DNA of 40,548 bases from Minisyncoccota bacterium (GTDB taxonomy: Bacteria; Patescibacteriota; Minisyncoccia; Phycocordibacterales; UBA9973): positions 1-40,548 of the forward strand of contig JANNRS010000011.1 of assembly GCA_031401615.1 (NCBI GenBank), read 5' to 3'. The translations under genes were made by a program, and so were the position numbers. The notes beneath the pieces were generated by a model. The model made no database searches. It was not told the origin of the DNA and was given only the letters and a program-made list of their open reading frames with translations. Of the stretch, positions 561 through 39,003 are shown piece after piece; position 1 is the stretch's first letter; every line of letters starts with the position of its first letter.

Positions 561-754
561 AATATAAAATAAAAAAACAGGGAATGAATTTAGTAGGATC
601 AGAAGTTGGGGACATTGTTGATATGAATGAGGATGCTTTCAAGTATAACAGTGAATTTGTAGAAGAATGCGAAGATCAAAATGTGAAGTCGAAACATGTT
701 TTGTTTTATGCAGATGTGAGTAAAGCGAAAAATGGGATTTTAACAATTAATTAA
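557..754 (+). CDS. Hypothetical protein, 65 aa
   Basis: ATGA overlap with the upstream gene in the structural operon. Confidence 0.65.
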   Translation: MKYKIKKQGMNLVGSEVGDIVDMNEDAFKYNSEFVEECEDQNVKSKHVLFYADVSKAKNGILTIN

Positions 755-759
755 ATACG

Positions 760-1206
760 ATGGCAAATAATGGTTTTTATGGTTTGGTGTTCAAGACTTT
801 CTTTGATTCAGCGTTTACAAAAATAAACTTTGATTCGGACACAATAAAGGTCGCTTTACTAGATTCAGGTTATACCCCTGATTTTGATACGCATAATGCC
901 TTTGATGATCTTACAAATGAAGAGGCAGGAACAGGATATACAGCAGGCGGGGCTACTTTAGGCTCTAAAACTCTTACTCTTGATACTACTAACAATAGGT
1001 ATGTGCTAGACGCTGCGGATACTACTTGGATAGTTTCTAGTATTACTACCAGATATGCAGCTGTCTATAAATCTACTGGAGTGGGTTCAACTTCTCTCTT
1101 GATTTGTCTTATCAACTTCGCAACTGATAGAACTTCAGATGGCGGGACTTTTCAGATTACTTGGCACGCAGACGGAATCGCTTATTTGTCTTACCCAATA
1201 GTTTAA
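760..1206 (+). CDS. Putative tail-associated structural protein
   Basis: DTIKVALL..GYTAGG..DAADTTW..GGTFQITW..DGI pattern recalled from phage tail modules. Confidence 0.65.
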   Translation: MANNGFYGLVFKTFFDSAFTKINFDSDTIKVALLDSGYTPDFDTHNAFDDLTNEEAGTGYTAGGATLGSKTLTLDTTNNRYVLDAADTTWIVSSITTRYAAVYKSTGVGSTSLLICLINFATDRTSDGGTFQITWHADGIAYLSYPIV

Positions 1207-21887: not shown

Positions 21888-22049
21888 ATGGCAAACCATA
21901 AGAAAAAACAACACAAAATACGAGGCAAAGAGATTTTTGAATATGTCTGGGGATTTAAAAAGAGTTTTATAAAAGATTACAGTGACAAAGAAATTTTTAA
22001 AAAAGAAATACACCGAAAAGGAATTGAGAGGTTTTATCAAGATGGCTGA
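21888..22049 (+). CDS. Hypothetical protein, 53 aa
   Basis: Hand-translated MANHKKKQHKIRGKEIFEYVWG..; short, no motif. Confidence 0.3.
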   Translation: MANHKKKQHKIRGKEIFEYVWGFKKSFIKDYSDKEIFKKEIHRKGIERFYQDG

Positions 22050-22125
22050 AGTAGCGTTGCGAGAATGGAATGACTTTTTATTTGAATGTCAGATTAAATT
22101 AAACGATTTAAAGTTTAAAAAATAG

Positions 22126-22248
22126 GTTTATTCACTCATAACCCCGTCAGTCTAATCATTTAGTTCAAAAGTAGAAGACTTAATTCGTTAGGTAAATGAG
22201 CGGTGCAAATTCCACTCAATGATTAGACGGGGTTATGAGTGCATAAAC
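22126..22248 (+). ncRNA. tRNA-like structured RNA A (no anticodon loop, no CCA)
   Basis: Long outer stem; AATCATT/AATGATT acceptor-like stem, D-like arm, TTCG hairpin, T-like arm with TGCAAAT loop. Confidence 0.7.
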
Positions 22249-22274
22249 AAAACCACTCCCGCAAAGGAGTGGCT
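22246..22274 (-). terminator. Terminator-like hairpin with U-tract on the minus strand
   Basis: CCACTCC-CGCAAA-GGAGTGG preceded by AAACAAAA. Confidence 0.5.
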
Positions 22275-22330
22275 AAAATTTTATATATTATCGGGTCAAG
22301 AGGTGTAATAAAAACATTGACCCTACCGCC

Positions 22331-22346
22331 AGCCATACGGCTTTTT
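22331..22346 (+). terminator. Short terminator-like hairpin
   Basis: AGCC-ATAC-GGCT followed by a T-run. Confidence 0.35.
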
Positions 22347-22410
22347 GGTTATAAGACTTTATACTAACATACTTTGACCTTTTGGGTAAAGCCAACTAAA
22401 TGGTGGTGAG

Positions 22411-22419
22411 TTATCCACA
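22411..22419 (+). promoter_or_regulatory. Consensus DnaA box
   Basis: TTATCCACA upstream of the initiator promoter. Confidence 0.55.
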
Positions 22420-22437
22420 CTTATTACAAAAATACTA

Positions 22438-22465
22438 TTGATTGTATTTTTTTTGAGAGTATAAT
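22438..22465 (+). promoter_or_regulatory. Promoter of the replication operon
   Basis: TTGATT-16 nt-TATAAT. Confidence 0.55.
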
Positions 22466-22573
22466 GTATTTGTTGAGCAATCAACCAACGAACCTTTAAG
22501 CCCATTTTTAGTACCCAATCACAGGGCTAGCAGGTCGCAAGATTTGCTGGTTCGTTGATTGGGTTTTAATTTT

Positions 22574-23023
22574 ATGTCAAAACAAAGAGTAATTAAAGAT
22601 GAAATGTGGGATGATGAGTGGTTTTATGATTTAGATCCATCTGAAAAGTTGTTGTGGGTTTTTTTGTTGACTAACCCTAGAAGTAACATTGCAGGTATTT
22701 ATAAAATAAATAGTCGTTGGGTATCTCAAACAACGGGTTTTGAAAAAGATGTTGTAAAAAACATTATGGGTCGTTTCAAAAAAGATAAGAAGATTTTATA
22801 TGAAAATGATTGGATTGCTATTATAAACTTCCATAAACATCTCCCATATAGAAATGAAAATATCGCTAAAGGCATCAAAAGGCTTTATGAAGAAATGAAA
22901 GACTATACAAAGGCTTTGAAAGGCTTTGAAAGCGTTTGGGTTACTCTACTTAACTCTACTCTACTCTACTTATCAGATAGCGAGTCTAAAGACTCGCAGA
23001 GTGTGATTAAAAAAAAACTATGA
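22574..23023 (+). CDS. Replication initiator, N-terminal part
   Basis: QRVIKDEMWDDEWFYDL..KLLWVFLLTN..IAGIY pattern; internal iteron-like repeats; upstream of the helicase. Confidence 0.75.
   Translation: MSKQRVIKDEMWDDEWFYDLDPSEKLLWVFLLTNPRSNIAGIYKINSRWVSQTTGFEKDVVKNIMGRFKKDKKILYENDWIAIINFHKHLPYRNENIAKGIKRLYEEMKDYTKALKGFESVWVTLLNSTLLYLSDSESKDSQSVIKKKL
22868..22997. repeat. Putative origin: iteron-like repeats, CTCTA tract and palindrome
   Basis: AAAGGCTTT-like units at 22868, 22878, 22898, 22909, 22919 and 22929; CTCTA repeats 22944-22968; GCGAGTCT-AA-AGACTCGC. Confidence 0.55.
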
Positions 23024-23352
23024 AAAGATACAACGAAGATCAATCCTATGAGGAGCCTAGTATAGACCTTGATACCGGCGAGCGAGTAGAAGTAAAACCC
23101 CAAACTAAGAAGTACCCCAATTCTAAGGTAGTCTTTAGTCTCTTTGGTAAATACCCCGCTAATTGGAAAATAAATAAAACTCAACTCCAGTCTGCCGAAA
23201 ACCTATTTTTAGAGAGGGGGGTAGAACAGATAATTAAAGCTCTTAATTTTATTAAAGAGAATAAAGAGGATAAGTTTTGCCCCATTATAAATTCACCCTA
23301 TGATTTAGACTCTAAATGGGCAAAAATGATAGGATTTAAAAAACGACAATGA
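23020..23352 (+). CDS. Probable initiator C-terminal-like/replication protein
   Basis: IIKALNFIKE..DKFCPIINSPYDLDSKW resembles initiator C-termini; lies between initiator and helicase. Confidence 0.55.
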   Translation: MKRYNEDQSYEEPSIDLDTGERVEVKPQTKKYPNSKVVFSLFGKYPANWKINKTQLQSAENLFLERGVEQIIKALNFIKENKEDKFCPIINSPYDLDSKWAKMIGFKKRQ

Positions 23353-24299
23353 AAATAGAAGACTTAATAAAATCATTAGAAAAAGAGCAGACTAGAGCAA
23401 CTGGCGATCTTCATAGTTTGGCTGGTATGGTGAGGTTGAAAAGTATTGCTCAAGAATACAATGGGGAGTATAAACTTATTTGGTCAGATAAATTGCTAGA
23501 AGAAATTAAACAAAGACCAAAGAAAATTCTCTATAAGACTGGGGTTCCTTTATTGGATGATTTGATTGGAGGTTTTAAAGAGCAACAACTTATAACTTTA
23601 TCTGGGGCGACTAAGCACGGTAAAACTCAATTTGGGCTTTTCTTAATGGAAAAACTTACTGAACTTAATCCCCTAATGATACCACTAGAACAATCTAACG
23701 AAGAAATTATTGAACAGAGATTTGATAATGGATATTCTATCCCCAAATTCCTTTCTCCTGAAAAATTGGCAGCTCGGGTAACAGTGGACTGGATTGAAGA
23801 AAGAATTGTTGAGGGGATAGCAAAATATAATACTAAGCTGATCTTGATAGATCATTTGGGTTATATAAATGATTTTGGAGAGGATGGTCAATTTAAGAGA
23901 GAAAATCTAGCTTATCGGATTGGTCAAATAATGAAAGGGTTAAAAAATCTAGCTAAGAAATGGGGAGTAGTTATAATTCTTTTAGTCCATATATCTCAAA
24001 AAGATGAGTCGCATCCACCAACAATGGAGGATATAAAAAATTCATCCGATATTGCTCAAGAGTCTGATCTAGTCATTATGTTATGGAGAAAAAATGAGCA
24101 GAAAAATAAAGTGAGAATATATCAAAACGAAACTCTAGTATCGGTAATGGCAAATAGGCGGACAGGTAGAAATGGGAATGTTGGTTTAAAGTTTAATACT
24201 AAAACTGGCCAATACGAAGAAGAGAATGGTTGGGTAAAAGCGATGGAAGACTCTGCTAGGAATGACATTGAGGCTGATGATAATCTTGCGCTGATATGA
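23349..24299 (+). CDS. DnaB-like (SF4) helicase, short form
   Basis: TGVPLLDDLIGG, Walker A GATKHGKT, ILIDHL, SSDIAQESDLVIML, NRRTGRNG. Confidence 0.9.
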   Translation: MKIEDLIKSLEKEQTRATGDLHSLAGMVRLKSIAQEYNGEYKLIWSDKLLEEIKQRPKKILYKTGVPLLDDLIGGFKEQQLITLSGATKHGKTQFGLFLMEKLTELNPLMIPLEQSNEEIIEQRFDNGYSIPKFLSPEKLAARVTVDWIEERIVEGIAKYNTKLILIDHLGYINDFGEDGQFKRENLAYRIGQIMKGLKNLAKKWGVVIILLVHISQKDESHPPTMEDIKNSSDIAQESDLVIMLWRKNEQKNKVRIYQNETLVSVMANRRTGRNGNVGLKFNTKTGQYEEENGWVKAMEDSARNDIEADDNLALI

Positions 24300-24484
24300 A
24301 AAATCTATATGAGAAATTTTTTTATACAAATTGGTACTTAGAGGATTTAGAGTGGTTTAAAAATGACTTGATATTTTTTAGTCATTTGAAAAAACCCGAA
24401 GTAAAGGAAATGTACAAAAGGCATATTGAATGGGAGTTAGCACAATTAAAAACTTTAAAAGATAAATTAAAAAGCTATGACTGA
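24296..24484 (+). CDS. Hypothetical protein
   Basis: ATGA overlap with the helicase gene. Confidence 0.6.
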   Translation: MKNLYEKFFYTNWYLEDLEWFKNDLIFFSHLKKPEVKEMYKRHIEWELAQLKTLKDKLKSYD

Positions 24485-24632
24485 GCAACAAGTCCTAGAA
24501 GAAATAATTGAGTGGGTAGGTAGAAGAATAAAAGAACTCCCAAATGGAGAGTCAATTTATTATAAGGAAATGCGAGAGAGTTTGAGATGGGAGTTGAAGA
24601 CGGTTAAGGAGAGATTAGAGGGTAAAAGGTAG
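24477..24632 (+). CDS. Hypothetical protein, 51 aa (not in track)
   Basis: MTEQQVLEEIIEWVGRR..; overlaps the upstream stop. Confidence 0.55.
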   Translation: MTEQQVLEEIIEWVGRRIKELPNGESIYYKEMRESLRWELKTVKERLEGKR

Positions 24633-24663
24633 TTTTAATCATTAAAGAAGTAATTAAACAAAT

Positions 24664-24843
24664 ATGAAGGAAGACTATTTTGAAAAATGTTTGCATTGTT
24701 ATACAAAATGGAACGCTTGTAAGTGTGAACGATGCCACCATTGTGGTAAATCTATAAGTAAAAAAACTGTTGGTTATCCATTCTGTTCTATGTTTTGTTC
24801 TGAAGGTAATCGTTTAGGAGTAGTTAATCCAAACATAATATGA
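24664..24843 (+). CDS. Cys-rich zinc-finger-like protein, 59 aa (not in track)
   Basis: CLHC..CKCERCHHC..FCSMFC. Confidence 0.55.
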   Translation: MKEDYFEKCLHCYTKWNACKCERCHHCGKSISKKTVGYPFCSMFCSEGNRLGVVNPNII

Positions 24844-24871
24844 AAGCTTTATTAAAATTAAGTTATAAGAA

Positions 24872-25114
24872 ATGAAGAAGAAATTAACAAATATAGAAAA
24901 AGCTTATCCTGAAGCATATAGGTTAGCTCGTAGATTTCACGAGTTTTATGAACAGTCCGCACCTTTCTTTGGATATAAAACAAATAAAGAAACAAAAGAG
25001 TTTGACCCAGAAAGTGCAAATGGTCGTTTAATGGCTTGGGTGTGTTTTGAAATTGTAAAAGAAGAGATTGATAGATACAAAGACGCTTTTTATAAGAACA
25101 GTGGTAAAAAGTAA
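24872..25114 (+). CDS. Hypothetical phage protein
   Basis: 80 aa; LARRFHEFYEQSAPFFGYKT. Confidence 0.65.
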   Translation: MKKKLTNIEKAYPEAYRLARRFHEFYEQSAPFFGYKTNKETKEFDPESANGRLMAWVCFEIVKEEIDRYKDAFYKNSGKK

Positions 25115-25213
25115 AATGAAAATAAAAATCAATCCAAAGGTAAAAATTCACTGTCCCCTCCACAACTTACAAATCAGTAATCCTAACGCTGGCTATGCCG
25201 TAGCTTGTATAAA

Positions 25214-25408
25214 ATGTTATCCAGAGAAATGAAGAAACGAAATCCAAGATTTCCTGATTATACACTCGTAACCACCAAAGAAAGTGGAATAATAACTTTT
25301 GGTACGAATGTATGGATTAGAAAAGATAAGCTAGCTTTGATTATTGTTTTTCCTACAGGACAAGAATTACATTTTAGACCAGTGGAACTTGACAAAAGTG
25401 AAAAGTAA
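25214..25408 (+). CDS. Hypothetical protein
   Basis: ORF track; first in-frame ATG used. Confidence 0.5.
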   Translation: MLSREMKKRNPRFPDYTLVTTKESGIITFGTNVWIRKDKLALIIVFPTGQELHFRPVELDKSEK

Positions 25409-25437
25409 TCCCAAATCCGTTATCAACAGTTTTGATA

Positions 25438-25466
25438 TTGCTTTTATAATTGATAGGTGATAAGGT
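25438..25466 (+). promoter_or_regulatory. Putative promoter of RNA B and the recombination operon
   Basis: TTGCTT-17 nt-TAAGGT with extended TG; DnaA-box-like TTATCAACA at 25420. Confidence 0.4.
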
Positions 25467-25480
25467 ATAGGAGGTCGAGA

Positions 25481-25687
25481 GGAAGTTCTTTGAATTGAGA
25501 GATGGCGGAATATGTAGACGCTAGAGGGGTTAGAGTCTGTGCCCCCTTAATCGAGGAGTTAAAACTATATTTGTTCTGAAGGTAGTTAAATTGATCTTTA
25601 CGCCTTCAAGACTTCTCCAGCCGAAATGCTGGCTCACAGCACCTATGTAAAGTGAAAATCTTTACTCTCTCAACTCAGAGAATTTCC
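25481..25687 (+). ncRNA. tRNA-like structured RNA B with a 125-nt insert in place of the anticodon/variable arms
   Basis: 22-bp outer stem ending TGAGAGA/TCTCTCA; Leu-type D-arm; T-like arm GTAAAG-TGAAAAT-CTTTAC; no CCA. Confidence 0.75.
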
Positions 25688-25709
25688 ATTTAAAAGTAAC
25701 ATCAGAAAT

Positions 25710-25871
25710 ATGGAAAATAAAAAAGCATACTTAGAATTTAGAGGTTTAGAATTTGAAGTTGAAATACTTGGTCATAAGAAAGGGTATGGGAAACAGAGAT
25801 TTCTAATCTCTCCAGTCGCAGGGAATGGACAAGTTTGGATGAATGAAGAAACTTTAATCAAAATAAAATGA
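25710..25871 (+). CDS. Hypothetical protein, 53 aa (not in track)
   Basis: MENKKAYLEFRGLEFEVEILGHKKGYGKQRFLISPVAGNGQVWM.. Confidence 0.6.
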   Translation: MENKKAYLEFRGLEFEVEILGHKKGYGKQRFLISPVAGNGQVWMNEETLIKIK

Positions 25872-25975
25872 ATAACTACATCGGAAGATTTAGATTAGCT
25901 CGTGAAGAGCAATTAAGAATAAAGGTAGGTCTTTGGATTATTTTAGCAATGTTAATAATAACAACAATCAAATAA
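25868..25975 (+). CDS. 35-aa membrane peptide (not in track)
   Basis: ATGA overlap; VGLWIILAMLIITTI. Confidence 0.45.
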   Translation: MNNYIGRFRLAREEQLRIKVGLWIILAMLIITTIK

Positions 25976-26292: not shown

Positions 26293-26964
26293 ATGAGGAT
26301 AAAGAAGTTGTATAAATTCCTCCGTACTGGTCTTAAATCAGATAGAGGAAATCATACTTGGGAGCTAAATAAATGGTACAAAGAAGATATTGTTGAAATC
26401 TGTGAAAAGGGTTATCACGCTTCTAAAACTCCATTACAGGCATTAGGTTATGTAGCAGGTGAAATATTAGCCGAAGTATCTGTTAGGGGTGAATCAGTAA
26501 TCCAAGATGATAAAGAATGCTGGTCTGAAATGAAGATAACTAAAGCATATCATTGGACTAAAAAGGATTCAGTGGAACTCTCTATTTTTTCTGCTGAACT
26601 ATGTTTAGAGAACTTTGAAAAACTGTATCCTGACGATAAGAGACCTAGGGAAGCTATTGAAGCGGCTAGAAAAGTTTTAGGAGCTGACACTGAGGAGAAT
26701 AGGTCGGCGGCGTGGTCGGCGGCGAGGTCGGCGGCGGAGTCGGCGTGGTCGGCGTGGTCGGCGTGGTCGGCGGCGTGGTCGGCGTGGTCGGCGTGGTCGG
26801 CGGCGTGGTCGGCGTGGTCGGCGTGGTCGGCGGCGTGGTCGGCGTGGTCGGCGTGGTCGGCGGCGGAGTCGGCGGCGGAGTCGGCGGCGGCTAAAAAACT
26901 TCTCATTTCAAAGTTGGATGCTTGGTTTATTAAACAAATTAAAACTCTTAAAAAATATGAATAA
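26293..26964 (+). CDS. Phage protein with an Ala-Trp-Ser repeat tract
   Basis: CEKGYHAS..PL.AL.Y N-domain; YPDDKRPREAIEAAR; (A)AWSA repeats. Confidence 0.8.
   Translation: MRIKKLYKFLRTGLKSDRGNHTWELNKWYKEDIVEICEKGYHASKTPLQALGYVAGEILAEVSVRGESVIQDDKECWSEMKITKAYHWTKKDSVELSIFSAELCLENFEKLYPDDKRPREAIEAARKVLGADTEENRSAAWSAARSAAESAWSAWSAWSAAWSAWSAWSAAWSAWSAWSAAWSAWSAWSAAESAAESAAAKKLLISKLDAWFIKQIKTLKKYE
26701..26890 (+). repeat. GC-rich in-frame tandem repeat
   Basis: 9-nt TGGTCGGCG and 12-nt TGGTCGGCGGCG units forming a 30-nt higher-order unit. Confidence 0.95.
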
Positions 26965-27282: not shown

Positions 27283-27954
27283 ATGACAAACATTATCGAA
27301 ATCCAGACTGAAATAAAAAAGGAACTTGGAAACAAAAGTGTGATGGACGCTTTGGTCGCTACTACTTTTAAAGGATTAGCAGTGCCACAAATTTATCTAG
27401 CGGTGCAGGAAGGTATCTTGAGGGGGTTTGAATTTAAAGACTTCCTAGAAAAAAATGTCTACGCTATCCCCTACGGATCGGGATATAGCTTGGTAACTTC
27501 CATAGACTACGCTCGTAAAATGGGAATGAAAAGCGGGATTGTTGGAGTATCAGCTCCCACTTACGAAGAAAAAGACGGCAAAATAATCTCTTGCTCAATC
27601 ACAGTCAAAAGAAAAGTAAGTGATTATATCGGCGAGTATTCCGCCACAGTATATTTTGACGAATACAACACTAAAAGAAACCAGTGGACTACAAAGCCTC
27701 GTACTATGATTGCAAAAGTAGCCGAAATGCACGCTCTCCGTAAGGCTTGTCCCGAAGAACTATCACAGGCATACTCTGAAGAAGAAAAGCAAAAAGAAAT
27801 TGAAGTACCAGAATTTGATGTCGCACCTTTCAAAGCAAAGTTAGAAGCTACTAAAACAATGGCGGAAATAAAAACAGTTTGGAATGCTTTACCGGCAGAG
27901 GCTAAAAAGGAGCTAGAAACATTAAAAGACGAATTAAAGTTGAAGTATGCATAA
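27283..27954 (+). CDS. RecT/Bet-family single-strand annealing protein
   Basis: [42 protein letters not shown]. Confidence 0.88.
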
Positions 27955-28315
27955 TAAACCTCATTCCAAAGAAGCCAGAGAGAAAATTAGGATTGGGCAT
28001 ACTGGCAAAAAACATTCAGAAGATCATAGACAGAAAATGCGAGATGGAATGATTAAAAGGTATGATAAAATAGGTAGAAAAGAAAGACCTAGACATTACC
28101 ATACGACAGATAGCGTATATAAACAGTGGCGTTCCAATATTTTTACGAGAGATAATTGGACTTGCCAAACTTGCAGAATTAGAGGCGTGTATCTAGAAGC
28201 TCATCATATAAAATCTTGGTCAAGATTTCCTGAACTAAGGTACGAGTTAAGTAATGGGGTTACTTTGTGTAAAGAATGTCACAAATTAACAGATAATTAT
28301 AAAAACAAGAAATGA
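27947..28315 (+). CDS. HNH homing endonuclease with NUMOD3
   Basis: [18 protein letters not shown]; [26 protein letters not shown]. Confidence 0.9.
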
Positions 28316-28911
28316 AAACTTTTAAATTTGAAACAAGGGAAGAATGGCTAATGGCTAGGCGAGGTAAGATCACTGGCTCTCGTTTAAAAGATATTGTGGT
28401 CAAAAGAGGGACTGGCTACAAAATAGGGTTTTATGAATTGATAGCCGAAAAACTTGGTATTCCTGCTGATGATGAAAGTGCTATGGATCGGGGGACTAGA
28501 CTTGAAAGCGAAGCGGTTGAGCAATTTACAAAAGAAACAGGTAAAAAAGTAGATACAAGTTTGGTGATGTGGACACGAGAGGAAAATGAGAATATCGCGA
28601 TCTCTCCCGATGGCTTCGGTAAGGACTTTGCAGTAGAAGCTAAATGCTTATCCTCTGCCCGCCACATTGAAGCTTGGCTCACTAAGAAAATCCCTGATGA
28701 ATACGAATACCAGAAACTTCAATACTTCATAGTAAACGACAAGCTCAAAAAACTTTACTTTCTCTTTTATGACCCTAGACTGCTTTATAAACCTTTTTTC
28801 ACCATTGAAGTAAAAAGAGAGGATGTAGAAGAAGAAGTCCAAGAATACTTGGAGTATCAAAAAAACATACTAGAAAGAGTAGACGAAATTGTAAACGATT
28901 TAACCTTTTAA
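28312..28911 (+). CDS. YqaJ/lambda-exonuclease-family nuclease
   Basis: [35 protein letters not shown]. Confidence 0.9.
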
Positions 28912-32232: not shown

Positions 32233-32742
32233 ATGAAAAGAGCTAAAAGAGAAGGAGAGGGTAGACCATCAATCTTTACTAAAGATCTTAGTGAAGCTAT
32301 TTGCCAGCGTATTGCTTCAGGCGAGAGTCTTAGAAGTATATGTAAGGATGATAATATGCCAGAGAGAACCACTGTTCATTTATGGTTGATTGACAAAGAG
32401 AAAGAAGAGTTTTTCAACCAATACGAAAAATCTTGCAATACTAGAGCAGAAAATATGTTTGATGAGCTTGTAGAAATTGCAGATGATGGTTCCAACGATT
32501 ATATGGAGAGAGAAAATAAAGATGGTAGTTCATATACCACAGTTGATAGTGAACACATACAAAGATCAAGGTTAAGAGTAGATACAAGAAAATGGTATTT
32601 ATCTAAAGTCTTACCTAAGAAGTATGGAGATAGACAAATACTTGCAGGAGATGAGGATAGTCCACTTAAACTAACTCTAGTAAACTATGCCGATAATAAA
32701 GGAACTATACCAACCAAGGGAATACCAGATACCGATAATTAA
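32233..32742 (+). CDS. terS: Terminase small subunit (Sf6-like)
   Basis: GRPS..ICQRIASGESLRSIC..MP..TV..W..RSRLRVDTRKWYLSKVLPKKYGD. Confidence 0.92.
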   Translation: MKRAKREGEGRPSIFTKDLSEAICQRIASGESLRSICKDDNMPERTTVHLWLIDKEKEEFFNQYEKSCNTRAENMFDELVEIADDGSNDYMERENKDGSSYTTVDSEHIQRSRLRVDTRKWYLSKVLPKKYGDRQILAGDEDSPLKLTLVNYADNKGTIPTKGIPDTDN

Positions 32743-34012
32743 AGCGTTTGATAACGGCTTTAAGAGGATTGTCCAAATCTGGCATCGCAGAGCTGGAAAG
32801 GATCTTACTACTTTGAATCTTGTTATAGGAGAAATGGTGCAGAGAGTGGGAAATTACTATTATTTCTATCCTACTTACGGACAAGGACGCAAAGCTCTAT
32901 GGGACAATAAGACAAAAGATAGTAAACCTTATTTGTCATTCTTTCCAAAGGCTCTTATAAAAAAACAAAACAACCATGAGATGAAAATAGAGCTAACAAA
33001 TGGCTCACTATTTCAGATCATAGGGCTTGAGAATGTTGATAATGTGATGGGGCCCAATCCTAGAGGATGTGTATTCTCTGAATATAGCCTTCTTAATCCT
33101 AGAGCTTGGGACTTAATACGTCCGATTCTAGCTGAAAATGGTGGTTGGGCTATATTCAACTACACCCCTAGAGGCAAGAATCATGGTTTTAAGCTATACA
33201 CAACCAACAAAGATAACCCTAAATGGTATTGTGAGATATTAAGAGCAGATCAAACAAAAGCGATAAGTGATGAAGATATTGATGAGGAGCGTAGAGCCGG
33301 GATGACAGAAGATATGATCCAACAAGAGTTTTACTGCTCATTCATCTCTGCGATACAAGGCTCATACTATTGGGAACAGGTAGATAGGGCAGAGAAAGAT
33401 AATCATTTTAAGGATATACCTTATGACTCGAAATTACTTGTACATACTGTATGGGATTTGGGTAAGAATGATTATAATTGTATTGGGTTCTACCAAAATG
33501 ATGGAGTGAGTGTAAGAAAGATTGATTATTTAGCCGGAGGCAGAAAAGGGCTGTTAGACTGGATAAAGTTAGTAAGAGAAAAACCGTATATCTATGGAAA
33601 ACACTTTGCCCCTCACGATATTGAAGTATCAGATTATACTTTAAATGGAGACCAGACTAGACGAGAGTTTGCCAAAGAACATAACTTTGAATTTGAAGTA
33701 GTTCCTAACAGATTGATAGTTGATGGAATAGACGCTGGTAGAAGATTTTTTAGTAAATTATATGTTGATAAAACTAAATGTGCCGAGTGGATAGATGCTA
33801 TACCGCAATATACTAAAGTCTATGATGAAGAAGGTAAGACTTTTAAAGATAAACCATTACACGATTGGACTTCTAACTTCGCAGACGAACACAGATATGC
33901 CTCACTTGTTTACCCACAATTCACTAATGACAGTTATTTAGTAGATACGGGAGAAATAAGACAACACCGAAAAGAGTCTTTGCATATTGCTCAACAAGAT
34001 GCGGGCTTGTAA
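32687..34012 (+). CDS. terL: Terminase large subunit
   Basis: WHRRAGKD, VFSEY, TPRGKNH, QEFYCSF, WDLG, PLHDWTSNFAD. Confidence 0.95.
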   Translation: MPIIKELYQPREYQIPIIKAFDNGFKRIVQIWHRRAGKDLTTLNLVIGEMVQRVGNYYYFYPTYGQGRKALWDNKTKDSKPYLSFFPKALIKKQNNHEMKIELTNGSLFQIIGLENVDNVMGPNPRGCVFSEYSLLNPRAWDLIRPILAENGGWAIFNYTPRGKNHGFKLYTTNKDNPKWYCEILRADQTKAISDEDIDEERRAGMTEDMIQQEFYCSFISAIQGSYYWEQVDRAEKDNHFKDIPYDSKLLVHTVWDLGKNDYNCIGFYQNDGVSVRKIDYLAGGRKGLLDWIKLVREKPYIYGKHFAPHDIEVSDYTLNGDQTRREFAKEHNFEFEVVPNRLIVDGIDAGRRFFSKLYVDKTKCAEWIDAIPQYTKVYDEEGKTFKDKPLHDWTSNFADEHRYASLVYPQFTNDSYLVDTGEIRQHRKESLHIAQQDAGL

Positions 34013-36940: not shown

Positions 36941-37031
36941 ATTGACAACAAAATAATAAAGCACTACAAAACCCTTGGGAAAGTTAGCTAGTTTCCTAAA
37001 TAGTTTGGTAGTGCTTTCTGTTTAGGACACT

Positions 37032-37099: not shown

Positions 37100-37726
37100 A
37101 TGGATGAAAACAAAAATACTCAAATTGAGTCCGCAGAAGAGTTAGAAGCGGAAAAACAACATCTAACAGAGGTAAAAGAGGACGATATAAGAAATCAAGT
37201 CATATCTGAATATGGTTTCGATGCAGATAATGATAATGATAAGGATAGAATTGACAAATTGGTACAAAAAGAAATGGGTTATAAAAAATCTCTTTCCACA
37301 GCAATTGGTCAGAAAAGAAAGTATCGGGATGAATTCACTAAACTGAAAACATCCGCTCCTAAAGTAGACGAGGGTAAGATAAATTTCAAACCCGAAGACC
37401 TTGAAAGCCACGTCAATGCAGCCCTTGAAAAACGAGATCTTGAAGCACTGGAATACCCAGATGACATCAAGAAGTCAATATCTCAAGTGTCTAAAATTGA
37501 AGGTGTATCTATCAGAAAAGCTATGTCCGATCCTTATGTAGCCGCTAAAATAGAGGCTTACAATAAGAAGAAGGATGCTGAAGAAGCCGCACTCGGTAGA
37601 ACTGATAAGAGCGGTAAAAAACAATCTAGTGAATCTGATACTCCCCCAAATGTTGATTTTTCAACTAAGGAGGGTAGAGATGAATACGATAAATGGAGAT
37701 CAGCACAGATAAAAGCTGGACACTAG
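37100..37726 (+). CDS. Putative scaffolding protein
   Basis: Charged helical 208 aa immediately before the capsid gene. Confidence 0.65.
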   Translation: MDENKNTQIESAEELEAEKQHLTEVKEDDIRNQVISEYGFDADNDNDKDRIDKLVQKEMGYKKSLSTAIGQKRKYRDEFTKLKTSAPKVDEGKINFKPEDLESHVNAALEKRDLEALEYPDDIKKSISQVSKIEGVSIRKAMSDPYVAAKIEAYNKKKDAEEAALGRTDKSGKKQSSESDTPPNVDFSTKEGRDEYDKWRSAQIKAGH

Positions 37727-37773: not shown

Positions 37774-39003
37774 ATGACCAATTCCCTTTCTGATTTGAAT
37801 CCCGCATTTTGGGCAGCTGAATGTCAGCGTTCATTATTCGTGAATAACAACTCAATGTCCATTGCGAACATGCAACTCCGCAATCTTCTCGCAGGAGAAG
37901 GCCGTACGGCACACAGGACTATCTTGTCCTACCCTGCAACTGAAACTTATACACCGGGGACTGATATGACTAATGTGGCTCTAACTGGTTCTAAGGAAAC
38001 TTTGGAAGTTGATACTTTCAAGTCTGCTCTTATGACTGTAGATGACACAGAAGAAAGACAGTCTATCGTTGATTTAGGTTCCAAAGTGGCAATGAGAATG
38101 ATGAAAGCTCACAATAACATTGTAGAGCAGACAGTTCTTAACCAAATTAGCAACGCTCTTCATACCCTAGATGATGGTAATGTCGGAGGTACAAGTGGTA
38201 ACAATATGGTGTTGAACACTGATGTTATCCCTCAAGTATTTGTATCAGCAGACACTAAATTGGATGCGATTGACGCACCAAAAGCCGGTAGAACAGCGGT
38301 AGTCGGTACTCACTTTAAGAGATGGTTGAAACTCCAGCAAGCTGGTAGAGATACCGTCTTCGGTGATGGTGTTAACTCTAATGGTGTCGTAGCTAACTTG
38401 TTTGGCTGGGATATTGTTGAGTCAAACAACCTTCCTTTCACAGCTGTCCTTACAATGATCACTCAACCTACTAACGGTGATACAGTCACTATCGCAGGGG
38501 TAACAGTGACTCTACACGCTACTTTGATTGCTTCAGCTTGGGCTGATATCAGAACTGACGTAGATACCACTAGAACCTTCCTTCGTGACCTTATTAACTA
38601 TCAGAACGGCACAGGTGGTACTGTAGCTGGTACTGTAGGTACTGACTTCACAGATGTTTCGGCTGAAAACCGATTTATTTGGAGAAAGAGAAACCTGTTG
38701 GCAGTTGACTCACCAAGCGGTGATACCCTCACAATTACTGGAAACGGAGACATTGTAGTTTCTGAAACTCTAACGGCTGCGGCTGATGTTTGGGGTTCTC
38801 AAAGACAAGACTCTTTGTTTGGTATTCGTGGATGTATTGACTTGGTAGTTCAGATGCCTCCAAAGGTTGAAATTTCTCGTGTTCCTAAGCAATTTGCAGA
38901 CCACATCAAATCTATGGTTGGTCACGGTGTAAAAACCTTTGCTGATGGTGCTAGAGAAATGGTGCGTGCAAAGATTGATGCTTCAACTAATGATTGGTCT
39001 TAA
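37774..39003 (+). CDS. Major capsid protein (HK97 fold, P22-coat-like)
   Basis: 409 aa; NPAFWA..LDAIDAPKAGRTAVV..NGVVANLFGWDIVESNNLP..GHGVKTF. Confidence 0.82.
   Translation: MTNSLSDLNPAFWAAECQRSLFVNNNSMSIANMQLRNLLAGEGRTAHRTILSYPATETYTPGTDMTNVALTGSKETLEVDTFKSALMTVDDTEERQSIVDLGSKVAMRMMKAHNNIVEQTVLNQISNALHTLDDGNVGGTSGNNMVLNTDVIPQVFVSADTKLDAIDAPKAGRTAVVGTHFKRWLKLQQAGRDTVFGDGVNSNGVVANLFGWDIVESNNLPFTAVLTMITQPTNGDTVTIAGVTVTLHATLIASAWADIRTDVDTTRTFLRDLINYQNGTGGTVAGTVGTDFTDVSAENRFIWRKRNLLAVDSPSGDTLTITGNGDIVVSETLTAAADVWGSQRQDSLFGIRGCIDLVVQMPPKVEISRVPKQFADHIKSMVGHGVKTFADGAREMVRAKIDASTNDWS

Follow-up and report, generated by a model that had tools for sequence, protein, structure and literature searches.

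The window analyzed in this report is the whole of contig JANNRS010000011.1 (40,548 nt) from the Minisyncoccota assembly GCA_031401615.1, a genome bin of 769 kb in 55 contigs that is 100% complete by markers. A direct repeat of 141 nt is found at both termini of the contig, and the window was therefore taken to be a circular phage genome of ~40.4 kb. The phage genes, nearly all of which are on the + strand, leave few gene-free gaps, and two of these gaps (22126–22558 and 25409–25709) are occupied by stem-closed elements, denoted E1 and E2, that flank the replication genes. An earlier sequence-only reading had described both elements as tRNA-like RNAs with five features in common: an acceptor-like stem of more than 20 bp, a U8-type linker with a D-arm, a 6-bp T-like stem, an altered T-loop, and a replaced anticodon arm without CCA. 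All five are present in E2, and E1 has them only in a weakened form. By its sequence, E2 is clearly a member of a widespread phage family that is derived from tRNA-Leu.

E2 and Its tRNA-Leu-Derived Family

The closing stem of E2 was found to contain 22 bp with one A/C mismatch and two G-U pairs (coordinates of all parts are collected in Table 1). The acceptor strands UGAGAGA/UCUCUCA are paired at 7 of 7 positions and are followed by U8 and by a D-arm (GGCGG, an A-rich loop with GUAGA, and CGC) that matches the Leu type. The perfect 6-bp T stem is preceded by UAU, with U rather than the more common C before AU, and is separated by 0 nt from the 3′ strand of the acceptor stem; no CCA is encoded. 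The insert had been placed at the anticodon position in the sequence-only reading, and it is now seen to occupy all of the sequence from the D-arm to the T-arm. Constrained folds of this middle portion gave no stem of 5 bp with a loop of 7 nt, and ARAGORN, run with and without introns, did not call E2 as a tRNA. The first arm of the middle contains UUAG in its predicted loop and may be the swollen relic of a UAG anticodon loop. The folding energies of E2 were calculated to be −71.0 kcal/mol (z −5.43) for the + strand and −61.9 kcal/mol for the − strand. Since the + strand folds 9 kcal/mol better, these predictions favor E2 as an RNA of the + strand.

The exact 19-nt D-arm word of E2 was found 84 times in 82 stretches of a viral-contig collection, and these matches, when placed side by side, exhibit one design. 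The design opens with a 7-bp acceptor stem, U8, and a Leu-type D-arm. A variable middle of 23–212 nt takes the place of the anticodon arm and the variable arm, after which come (C)AU and a T stem of 6 bp whose loop is U-G-N-R-A-A-U; CCA is absent. At least 6 of 7 acceptor pairs and at least 5 of 6 T-stem pairs, together with U at position 1 and A at position 5 of the T-loop, were found for 78 of the 84 matches, corresponding to 63 unique sequences; one of the 78 (L087) is mis-assigned. One of the six that failed by these strict criteria lies at a contig edge, and most of the others are, by eye, members with an imperfect stem. The T-loops of the members selected by the D-arm word are UGAAAAU (32), UGCAAAU (16), UGUAAAU (7), UGCGAAU (4), and UGGAAAU (3). 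The shortest member is 75 nt in length and has an unstructured middle of 23 nt.

A second scan used the T-arm word CATG NNN GGTG N AAATCC NNN C, which places no constraint on the D-arm and thus avoids circularity of selection. This word was found in at least 119 stretches, and 80 matches were examined. A Leu-type D-arm and a U at the right distance, together with a complementary 7-nt acceptor strand, were found for 70 of the 80, none of which is called a tRNA by ARAGORN. The D-arm variant with GG in the D-loop is the most frequent one and is identical in 29 of these 70 members, and the variants of the D stem keep pairing. No recognizable class-I design was found in the remaining 10 of the 80 matches, which have no Leu-type D-arm. 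When species-representative bacterial genomes were scanned with the E2 word, 15 stretches were obtained, of which 11 are members, one is a tRNA-Leu(UAA), and three are other things. The 11 members are from Lachnospiraceae, Oscillospiraceae, Clostridiales, Acutalibacteraceae, Paenibacillus, Bacilli, and Rikenellaceae. The family occurs in both phages and prophages, from Bacillota, Bacteroidota, and further phyla, and comprises well over 100 nonredundant sequences.

Two alignments were used to analyze the fold of the family: A1, with 35 members selected by the D-arm word, from which family model R1 was built, and A2, with 56 members selected mostly by the T-arm word. In A1, 99.3% of 560 cells are paired, and in A2, 98.2% of 896 cells are paired, values that are somewhat inflated by an extraction that required near-complete pairing of the acceptor and T stems, with few candidates lost. 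In A1, 12 of the 16 pairs change on both sides, which was reached in 0 of 500 shuffles, and controls with slid partners are 34–51% paired. In A2, changes on both sides are seen for 14 of the 16 pairs, and two of the three D-stem pairs are among them. The proposal of a defined scaffold with a variable insert thus stands for E2, whose design recurs with covariation in more than 100 nonredundant sequences, and is not supported for E1.

Outside of the helices, the invariant or nearly invariant positions were determined to be U8, G9, A14, A15, GUA of the D-loop, and the U just before the T stem; those of the T-arm are G53, U54, G55, A58, A59, U60, and C61. Apart from G55, all of these are positions by which a tRNA maintains its L shape. 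Where the D-loop carries G, it is accompanied by C56 in the T-loop in 51 of 52 members; where it carries U (59 members), position 56 is A in 28, C in 20, U in 8, and G in 3. A contact of the G19:C56 type between the D- and T-loops, relaxed in the E2 subtype, is suggestive only because the two sets of members were ascertained differently. G55 is not confined to the nondecoding family, since a phage tRNA-Pro(UGG) called by ARAGORN under default settings (L232, 12993–13066; T-loop UGCAAGU) also has G55.

The middle portion is not conserved. Between one and six arms are predicted for it, and the final arm often stops two bases short of the T stem. In four members (L053, L082, L097, and L091) the insert contains an internal hairpin that resembles a canonical T-arm (GGUUCGAnUCC), followed by a small hairpin with the loop AGUGCACG before the T-arm of the family itself. 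These inserts look like a tRNA-like module nested within a tRNA-like scaffold.

The base after the acceptor stem in 115 copies was determined to be A in 63, U in 33, C in 15, and G in 4, and CCA is not encoded. At least four further perfect pairs beyond the 7-bp acceptor stem were found in 17% of the copies and in 2.6% of permuted flanks. An extension of at least 12 bp was found in only 5 of the 115 (E2, L036, L083, L095, and L107). A closing stem of more than 20 bp, offered in the sequence-only reading as a trait of the class, is therefore an add-on rather than a defining feature.

The descent of the family from tRNA-Leu was shown by comparison of sequences. Tested against E2, which is in neither seed alignment, R1 gave 64.4 bits (E 1.6e-16) and the second family model, R2, gave 55.2 bits (E 2.9e-15). 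E2 is the top match of R2 in the window, where the next match has 13.2 bits; in the host bin, the next match of R1 after E2 is the host tRNA-Leu(CAA) at 25.1 bits. In 150 other genomes of the same phylum, R2 found genes of 81–87 nt with scores of at most 52.3 bits, and all five that were checked with ARAGORN are tRNA-Leu. The exact D-arm word of E2 is also carried by one genuine tRNA-Leu(UAA) from a Desulfobacteraceae genome (L140). The ancestry was shown again by BLAST, since matches to the 5′ part alone of a member fall on annotated tRNA-Leu genes of cyanophages. Searches by nhmmer with profiles of the host tRNAs were too insensitive to be of use, with E values of 0.11 for a true tRNA-Trp and 12 for the D-arm of E2.

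The family and tRNA-Leu (RF00005) are alike in the acceptor stem, U8, the D-arm word, CAU before the T stem, the pair G53-C61, and U54/A58. They differ in the T stem (5 bp in tRNA-Leu and 6 bp in the family) and in the T-loop, which is UUCAAAU in tRNA-Leu and has G rather than U at position 55 in the family. In addition, tRNA-Leu has an anticodon arm, which the family lacks, and CCA is not encoded by the family. Because genuine tRNA-Leu reaches 52.3 bits with R2 and E2 has 55.2 bits, the score alone does not separate the two, and membership rests on derived characters read from the sequence. E2 has all of these characters: the 6-bp T stem, G55, and the absence of an anticodon arm. Its membership in the family, the folds of its acceptor, D, and T stems, its ancestry in tRNA-Leu, and its inability to decode are thus shown.

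No Rfam 15 family covers the elements in the 15 + 14 member loci that were scanned at E ≤ 0.1, and the same scans do find neighboring tRNAs, tmRNA, ROOL, drum, int-alpA, and twister-sister. In the portions of the literature that were available, no description of the family was found and its conserved words led to unrelated primers; collections of 10,006 candidate viral RNAs (PMC10690425) and of 224 motifs (PMC5737381) may hold the motif in their full data. The suggestion that the elements belong to no described family is thus borne out by Rfam, and it goes too far in that the kind of RNA is not wholly new, given its descent from tRNA-Leu and its resemblance to RNA1 of phage T5.

When a member was used as a BLAST query, matches were found in 96 GenBank phage records. 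The presence of the family in the Bacillus phages phi3T (71.2 bits) and SBSphiJ1 (73.1 bits; OM982668, ~40993–41118) was confirmed with R2. The phi3T copy (L275, 2500–2634; KY030782, ~50193–50326, complement) is located just after the HU-like gene phi3T_58 and overlaps phi3T_57, a "hypothetical protein" of 50 amino acids that is probably a mis-annotated RNA gene. Among 87 copies, 33 are within 1 kb of a tRNA or tmRNA gene, and all 31 copies whose nearest such gene is at most 500 nt away are on the same strand as that gene. Among the 29 loci scanned, three have a member directly adjacent to ROOL (L035, 396–1144; L044, 4522–5103; L217, 667–1384). In L035 and L044 the element immediately precedes ROOL, and in L217 it follows ROOL at a distance of 13 nt. 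Drum is beside members in 2 of the 29 loci (L044 and L210).

E1 and the Surrounding Phage Genome

The arms of E1 (22126–22148 and 22226–22248) are 96% complementary and are continued by an upper stem of 11 bp, with a 4-nt bulge and one mismatch. The whole of E1 was calculated to fold at −46.0 kcal/mol (z −9.66), and 0 of 200 shuffles are as good. For the inner 77 nt, which can be drawn as a cloverleaf, z is −0.49 and 59 of 200 shuffles are as good, and the fold signal of E1 lies entirely in its long stem. In the drawn cloverleaf the linkers have tRNA-like lengths, the D stem has 3 bp and a loop of 7 nt, and a 6-bp hairpin capped by UUCG occupies the anticodon position. Its T-like arm, GAGCGG/UGCAAAUU/CCACUC, has 5 of 6 pairs with a C/A mismatch and an 8-nt loop that is one base too long; the arm is in the right position for the family design and has U before the stem. 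At 80% thresholds, ARAGORN draws 22154–22225 as a tRNA with a 2-nt "anticodon", a drawing that carries no weight because, at these thresholds, 14 hits are obtained for the window and 11.9 on average for 20 shuffles.

The sequence-only reading had placed E1 and E2 in one class, and the models do not bear this out. With filters off, R1 gave 4.1 bits for a trivial alignment of the T-like hairpin of E1, which is noise. R2 aligned 22154–22224 end to end, but the score of 7.1 bits (E 5.1) is only the 17th among 23 noise hits in the window. The 17-nt word from the D-region of E1, which served as a control for the behavior of such words, has 14 matches in the viral contigs with nothing in common, and its T-arm word has 0 matches there. 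BLAST of 22100–22300 against 400 other genomes of the same phylum returned only matches of 19–34 nt. A third model, R3, built from E1 alone, found no E1-like element in 1.7 Mb of phage loci. The best outside matches of R3 are real tRNAs, such as the phage tRNA-Pro with the T-loop UGCAAGU (27.8 bits), and a decayed class-I tRNA is accordingly a weakly fitting account of what the interior of E1 may be.

E1 is thus an orphan hairpin whose membership in the E2 family is not supported. It follows the small reading frame that ends the upstream gene block and is most likely a stabilizing, processing, or terminating 3′-end hairpin that is separate from the E2 family.

Neither element was detected by standard annotation. 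ARAGORN under default settings found no tRNA anywhere in the window, and no Rfam family matches the window at gathering scores; only three irrelevant weak matches were obtained for 21900–25900 at E ≤ 10. The Rfam tRNA model RF00005 matches neither E1 nor E2 at E ≤ 10. No variant letters were seen in E1 or E2 in four DNA runs from one study, two of which are possibly the source of the DNA.

Table 1. Features of the phage genome, with the long-stem elements of one related locus
Feature	Position	Strand	Remarks
E2, whole stem-closed element	25481–25688	+	tRNA-Leu-like core with a 15-position acceptor-stem extension on each side
E2 core	25496–25672	+	acceptor strands 25496–25502 and 25666–25672
E2 U8 and Leu-type D-arm (19 nt)	25503–25521	+	exact word common to 82 viral stretches
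E2 variable middle (125 nt), three predicted arms	25522–25646	+	from constrained folds
E2 T-like arm, GUAAAG/CUUUAC, loop UGAAAAU	25647–25665	+	adjoins acceptor 3′ strand
Promoter-like TCAACA-16-TATAAT	25423–25450	+	30 nt upstream of E2; 10/12 matches
E1, stem-closed hairpin	22126–22248	+	closing stem of ~30 bp
E1 interior, weak class-I-tRNA-like cloverleaf	22154–22225	+	drawn by ARAGORN only at 80% thresholds
GC-rich terminator-like hairpin	22251–22274		directly after E1; flagged on the − strand; on the + strand followed by CUAAAAUUUU; end of upstream gene block
Promoter-like TTGATT-16-TATAAT and strong 5′-leader hairpin	22438–22576		site 190 nt past E1; hairpin ends just before the DnaD-like start codon
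DnaD-like replisome organizer	22574–23023
DnaB-like helicase	23349–24299
RecT	27283–27954
RecE-like exonuclease	28312–28911
Terminase	32233–34012
Major head protein	37774–39003
Several HNH endonucleases			in the window
Long-stem elements in a row, related locus L015	~278–505, 510–605, 615–790		each unit preceded by TTAGAGAAT

Relatives of the phage were fetched by means of four proteins: the helicase, the DnaD-like protein, RecT, and a 97-aa neighbor. These protein-guided searches yielded 2 + 5 viral loci, 19 metagenome loci, and two more via RecT. The relatives share with the window only the block 23020–24632, and their flanks are mosaic; neither element can therefore be traced by synteny. 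The two elements do bracket the replication module in the window, as had been stated, and this arrangement is not conserved. No counterpart of E1 or E2 was found at the matching places in the fetched relatives, where the ends of L019 looked coding, and BLAST of both elements against the fetched loci and the phage collection returned nothing.

In the relative L015, whose helicase is 75% identical, one strand carries a promoter-like site, a 21-bp hairpin, a genuine tRNA-Trp (204–277), and, directly after it, three long-stem multibranch elements in a row. Two of these three elements start, after the closing stem, with the letters of the E2 D-arm, and two obtain weak scores (26 and 16 bits) with the family models. 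The middle unit (~110 nt) has no match to any of the models used. The spacer word TTAGAGAAT is found at unit junctions in L014 and L015, with a near-match in the 3′ strand of E2; this shared word may reflect only that the phages are related and AT-rich. More distant relatives contain long-stem (21–22 bp) multibranch elements of 209 nt (L004, 10441–10649, equivalent to L023, 11441–11649) and 126 nt (L010, 4080–4205), which are unrelated in sequence to E1 and E2 and are matched by neither R1 nor R2.

Three other features of the window were recorded. In the related locus L029, a different hairpin with a three-way junction is found where the window has the leader at 22438–22576, and the structured leader of the replication operon thus seems to be kept in position and not in sequence; an Rfam match of this leader to mir-6301 (E 0.0035) is spurious. 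A GC-rich tandem array of 9- and 12-nt units, GTCGGCG(GCG)TG, with 14 copies in register, is found at 26682–26903 within the DUF7666 gene (26293–26964) of this otherwise AT-rich phage and encodes a low-complexity repeat. An imperfect palindrome of 30 bp with adjacent arms (73% complementary) is located at 36958–37017 in the gap before the gene at 37100–37726, upstream of the head genes.

Proposed Role of E2 and Alternative Explanations

We consider it probable that E2 is a small noncoding RNA gene of a large phage family descended from tRNA-Leu and that its product serves as a processed, nondecoding scaffold or as a cutting signal. The family has kept the acceptor stem, U8, and D-arm of tRNA-Leu, the U before the T stem, and U54/A58 of the T-loop. 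It has lost the anticodon arm and gained an insert specific to each lineage, a 6-bp T stem that gives a 13-bp stack of the acceptor and T stems, and G in place of U55. In the proposed scheme, E2 would be transcribed on the + strand with its neighbors, or just ahead of the downstream genes from the putative promoter at 25423–25450, a weak site given that regional counts of such sites are not above those of shuffles. The host bin encodes RNase P RNA (89.7 bits) and RNase III (126 bits), from which we infer that E2 is excised by host tRNA-processing enzymes. RNase P would cleave on the 5′ side and a second nuclease at the 3′ end, and RNase III could also act on the closing stem of 22 bp. The product would persist as a stable L-shaped RNA that would be excluded from translation because it has G55, the 13-bp stack, and no anticodon arm. 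Its role would be to display or stabilize the insert, or to mark a cleavage point between the messages on either side. The inserts vary freely and the elbow is strictly conserved, and these two observations point to different answers as to whether cargo, cut, or body matters most.

Several points weigh against this scheme. Transcription, processing, and stability of E2 are all things that we infer from its sequence, and a long leader-trailer helix of the E2 type, seen in 5 of 115 members, could hinder RNase P. The scores of E2 and of genuine tRNA-Leu lie close together with R2, and the paired percentages of the alignments are inflated as noted above. No tRNA gene was found in the stretch examined for 53 of the 87 copies, E2 included, and an "RNA array" context is therefore not general. 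The sequence-only reading had suggested a search for a co-occurring protein, and none was found in more than 8 of 58 loci; the best were a C5 DNA methylase (8/58) and the alpha subunit of DNA polymerase III (5/58). For E1, no homologue was found by word scans, BLAST, or models, and its fold favors neither strand (−46.0 kcal/mol for + and −47.2 kcal/mol for −).

A possible, if unlikely, explanation is that E2 and its relatives are punctuation only, in which a cleavage signal for RNase P and 3′ processing would split a polycistronic message, the excised RNA would be a by-product, and the insert would be filler. This is consistent with the location of E2 between the codirectional small genes at 25205–25408 and 25710–25871, with inserts that vary freely from 23 to 212 nt, and with the lack of a partner protein. 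Shape alone, however, would not need an invariant D-loop, a T-loop with G55, and a 6-bp T stem across phyla, and many copies are inside real tRNA arrays where cleavage sites are already present.

We regard it as rather unlikely that the two elements form one class after all, with E1 as a highly diverged member, or as a second chassis made from a class-I tRNA, that is produced and used in the same manner as E2. E1 does share with E2 the closed stem, U8, the A-A...G-U-A D-loop, and the U before a T-like stem that is closed by G-C and adjoins the 3′ strand, and its loop can be read as U-G-C-A-A-A-U with one extra U. The best outside matches of R3 to real tRNAs, including the tRNA-Pro with UGCAAGU at 27.8 bits, and the row of three different long-stem elements in L015, two of which score 26 and 16 bits with the family models, point in the same direction. 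Set against these likenesses are the scores of 4.1 and 7.1 bits with R1 and R2, the lack of a match to RF00005, and the inner fold of E1 at z −0.49. In addition, no relative of E1 was found with its two exact words in the viral contigs or by BLAST in the 400 other genomes of the phylum that were searched, and none of the 10 T-arm matches without a Leu-type D-arm, among the 80 examined, has a recognizable class-I design.

An improbable alternative is that the family would provide a decoy or sponge by which a factor that binds the body of tRNA-Leu is titrated during infection, such as leucyl-tRNA synthetase, a tRNA-modifying enzyme, or a host defense nuclease with recognition of the elbow or acceptor. 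What the family conserves is the upper part of tRNA-Leu that faces enzymes, the anticodon is not read by leucyl-tRNA synthetase, and a discriminator A is the most common base after the acceptor stem (63 of 115). Yet CCA is not encoded, the discriminator is not conserved (A, U, C, and G all occur), and G55 and the 13-bp stack depart from the usual targets of tRNA-binding proteins. A broader idea, to which we likewise assign a low probability, is that phages across many bacterial phyla might use a tRNA-Leu chassis, altered at U55, the T stem, and the D-loop, as an expression cassette for swappable RNA modules. The chassis would be excised by tRNA-processing enzymes yet excluded from translation, the inserts would be the active parts, such as decoys or guides against host factors, one conserved factor of host or phage would read the elbow, and E1 would be a second chassis made from a class-I tRNA.

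It is highly improbable that the elements are decaying tRNA-Leu pseudogenes or DNA-level inverted repeats (an origin, a recombination site, or a mini transposon) with no RNA function, and for E2 this is very unlikely: the two strands of E1 do fold equally well and both elements flank replication genes, but decay would not preserve compensatory changes and G-U pairs in three helices of more than 100 copies with invariant loops, the + strand of E2 is favored by 9 kcal/mol, and a mobile repeat is argued against by E1 and E2 each being single-copy in the bin.

Comparison with Known RNAs

A comparison with the models for Y RNA/YrlA, tRNA-Sec, and GOLLD/ROOL had been proposed in the sequence-only reading, and none of these models matches E1 or E2. 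YrlA and other bacterial Y RNAs combine a tRNA-like module with a long helix, also occur in phages, and can be cleaved by RNase P (PMC4201824). There is no match to RF02553 in the window, and the arrangement of ends and arms is different (PMC4201824). The ends of E1 and E2, unlike those of YrlA, form the acceptor stem, and the order of the arms is D and then T; the T-loops of YrlA are tRNA-like and are modified by tRNA enzymes. No Ro60/TROVE gene (PF05731) was found in the bin, and two control genomes were positive. The 7 + 6 stack of tRNA-Sec is present in E2, but E2 has no anticodon arm, and RF01852 matches neither E1 nor E2. GOLLD, ROOL, and drum share with the family a genomic habitat near tRNA genes; none of them has a match in the window, no likeness in sequence or structure was seen, and E1 and E2 are far smaller.

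The long, near-perfect helices between leader and trailer in E1 (~30 bp) and E2 (22 bp) resemble the RNase III processing helices of stable-RNA operons and of early phage transcripts. Such helices are found in only 5 of the 115 members of the family, and cleavage is predicted here.

The closest described object to the family is RNA1 of phage T5 (rna1, AY543070, 30501–30644). RNA1 is located among tRNA genes and, in common with the family, has an acceptor stem and D-arm of the Leu type and a long insert in place of the anticodon arm. R2 aligns RNA1 end to end at 25.7 bits (E 1.6e-6), a score not superior to the 20.9 bits of the tRNA-Leu of T5 itself. RNA1 differs from the family in its canonical T-loop, UUCAACU, and its shorter T stem, whereas the family has G55, a 6-bp T stem, and D-loop variants of its own; E2, unlike RNA1, is outside any tRNA array. 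The T5 record annotates RNA1 as a "tRNA-like stable RNA with unknown functions". RNAC and RNAD of phage T4 are kin to the RNA1 type and belong with it; their function is stated to be unknown in PMC3014915.

E2 thus represents a phage RNA of a kind that is known but unexplained, in a form that is new, well defined, and very widespread. Stable tRNA-like RNAs have been annotated in T5 and reviewed for T4 with no known role, and one sharply defined form of them is now found to be very common. The design of the family supplies an annotation rule for genes that are now missed or are mislabeled as small hypothetical proteins, as in phi3T. The occurrence of the family in phi3T and SBSphiJ, which are phages of Bacillus subtilis, makes the old question raised by RNA1, RNAC, and RNAD testable in a standard host.

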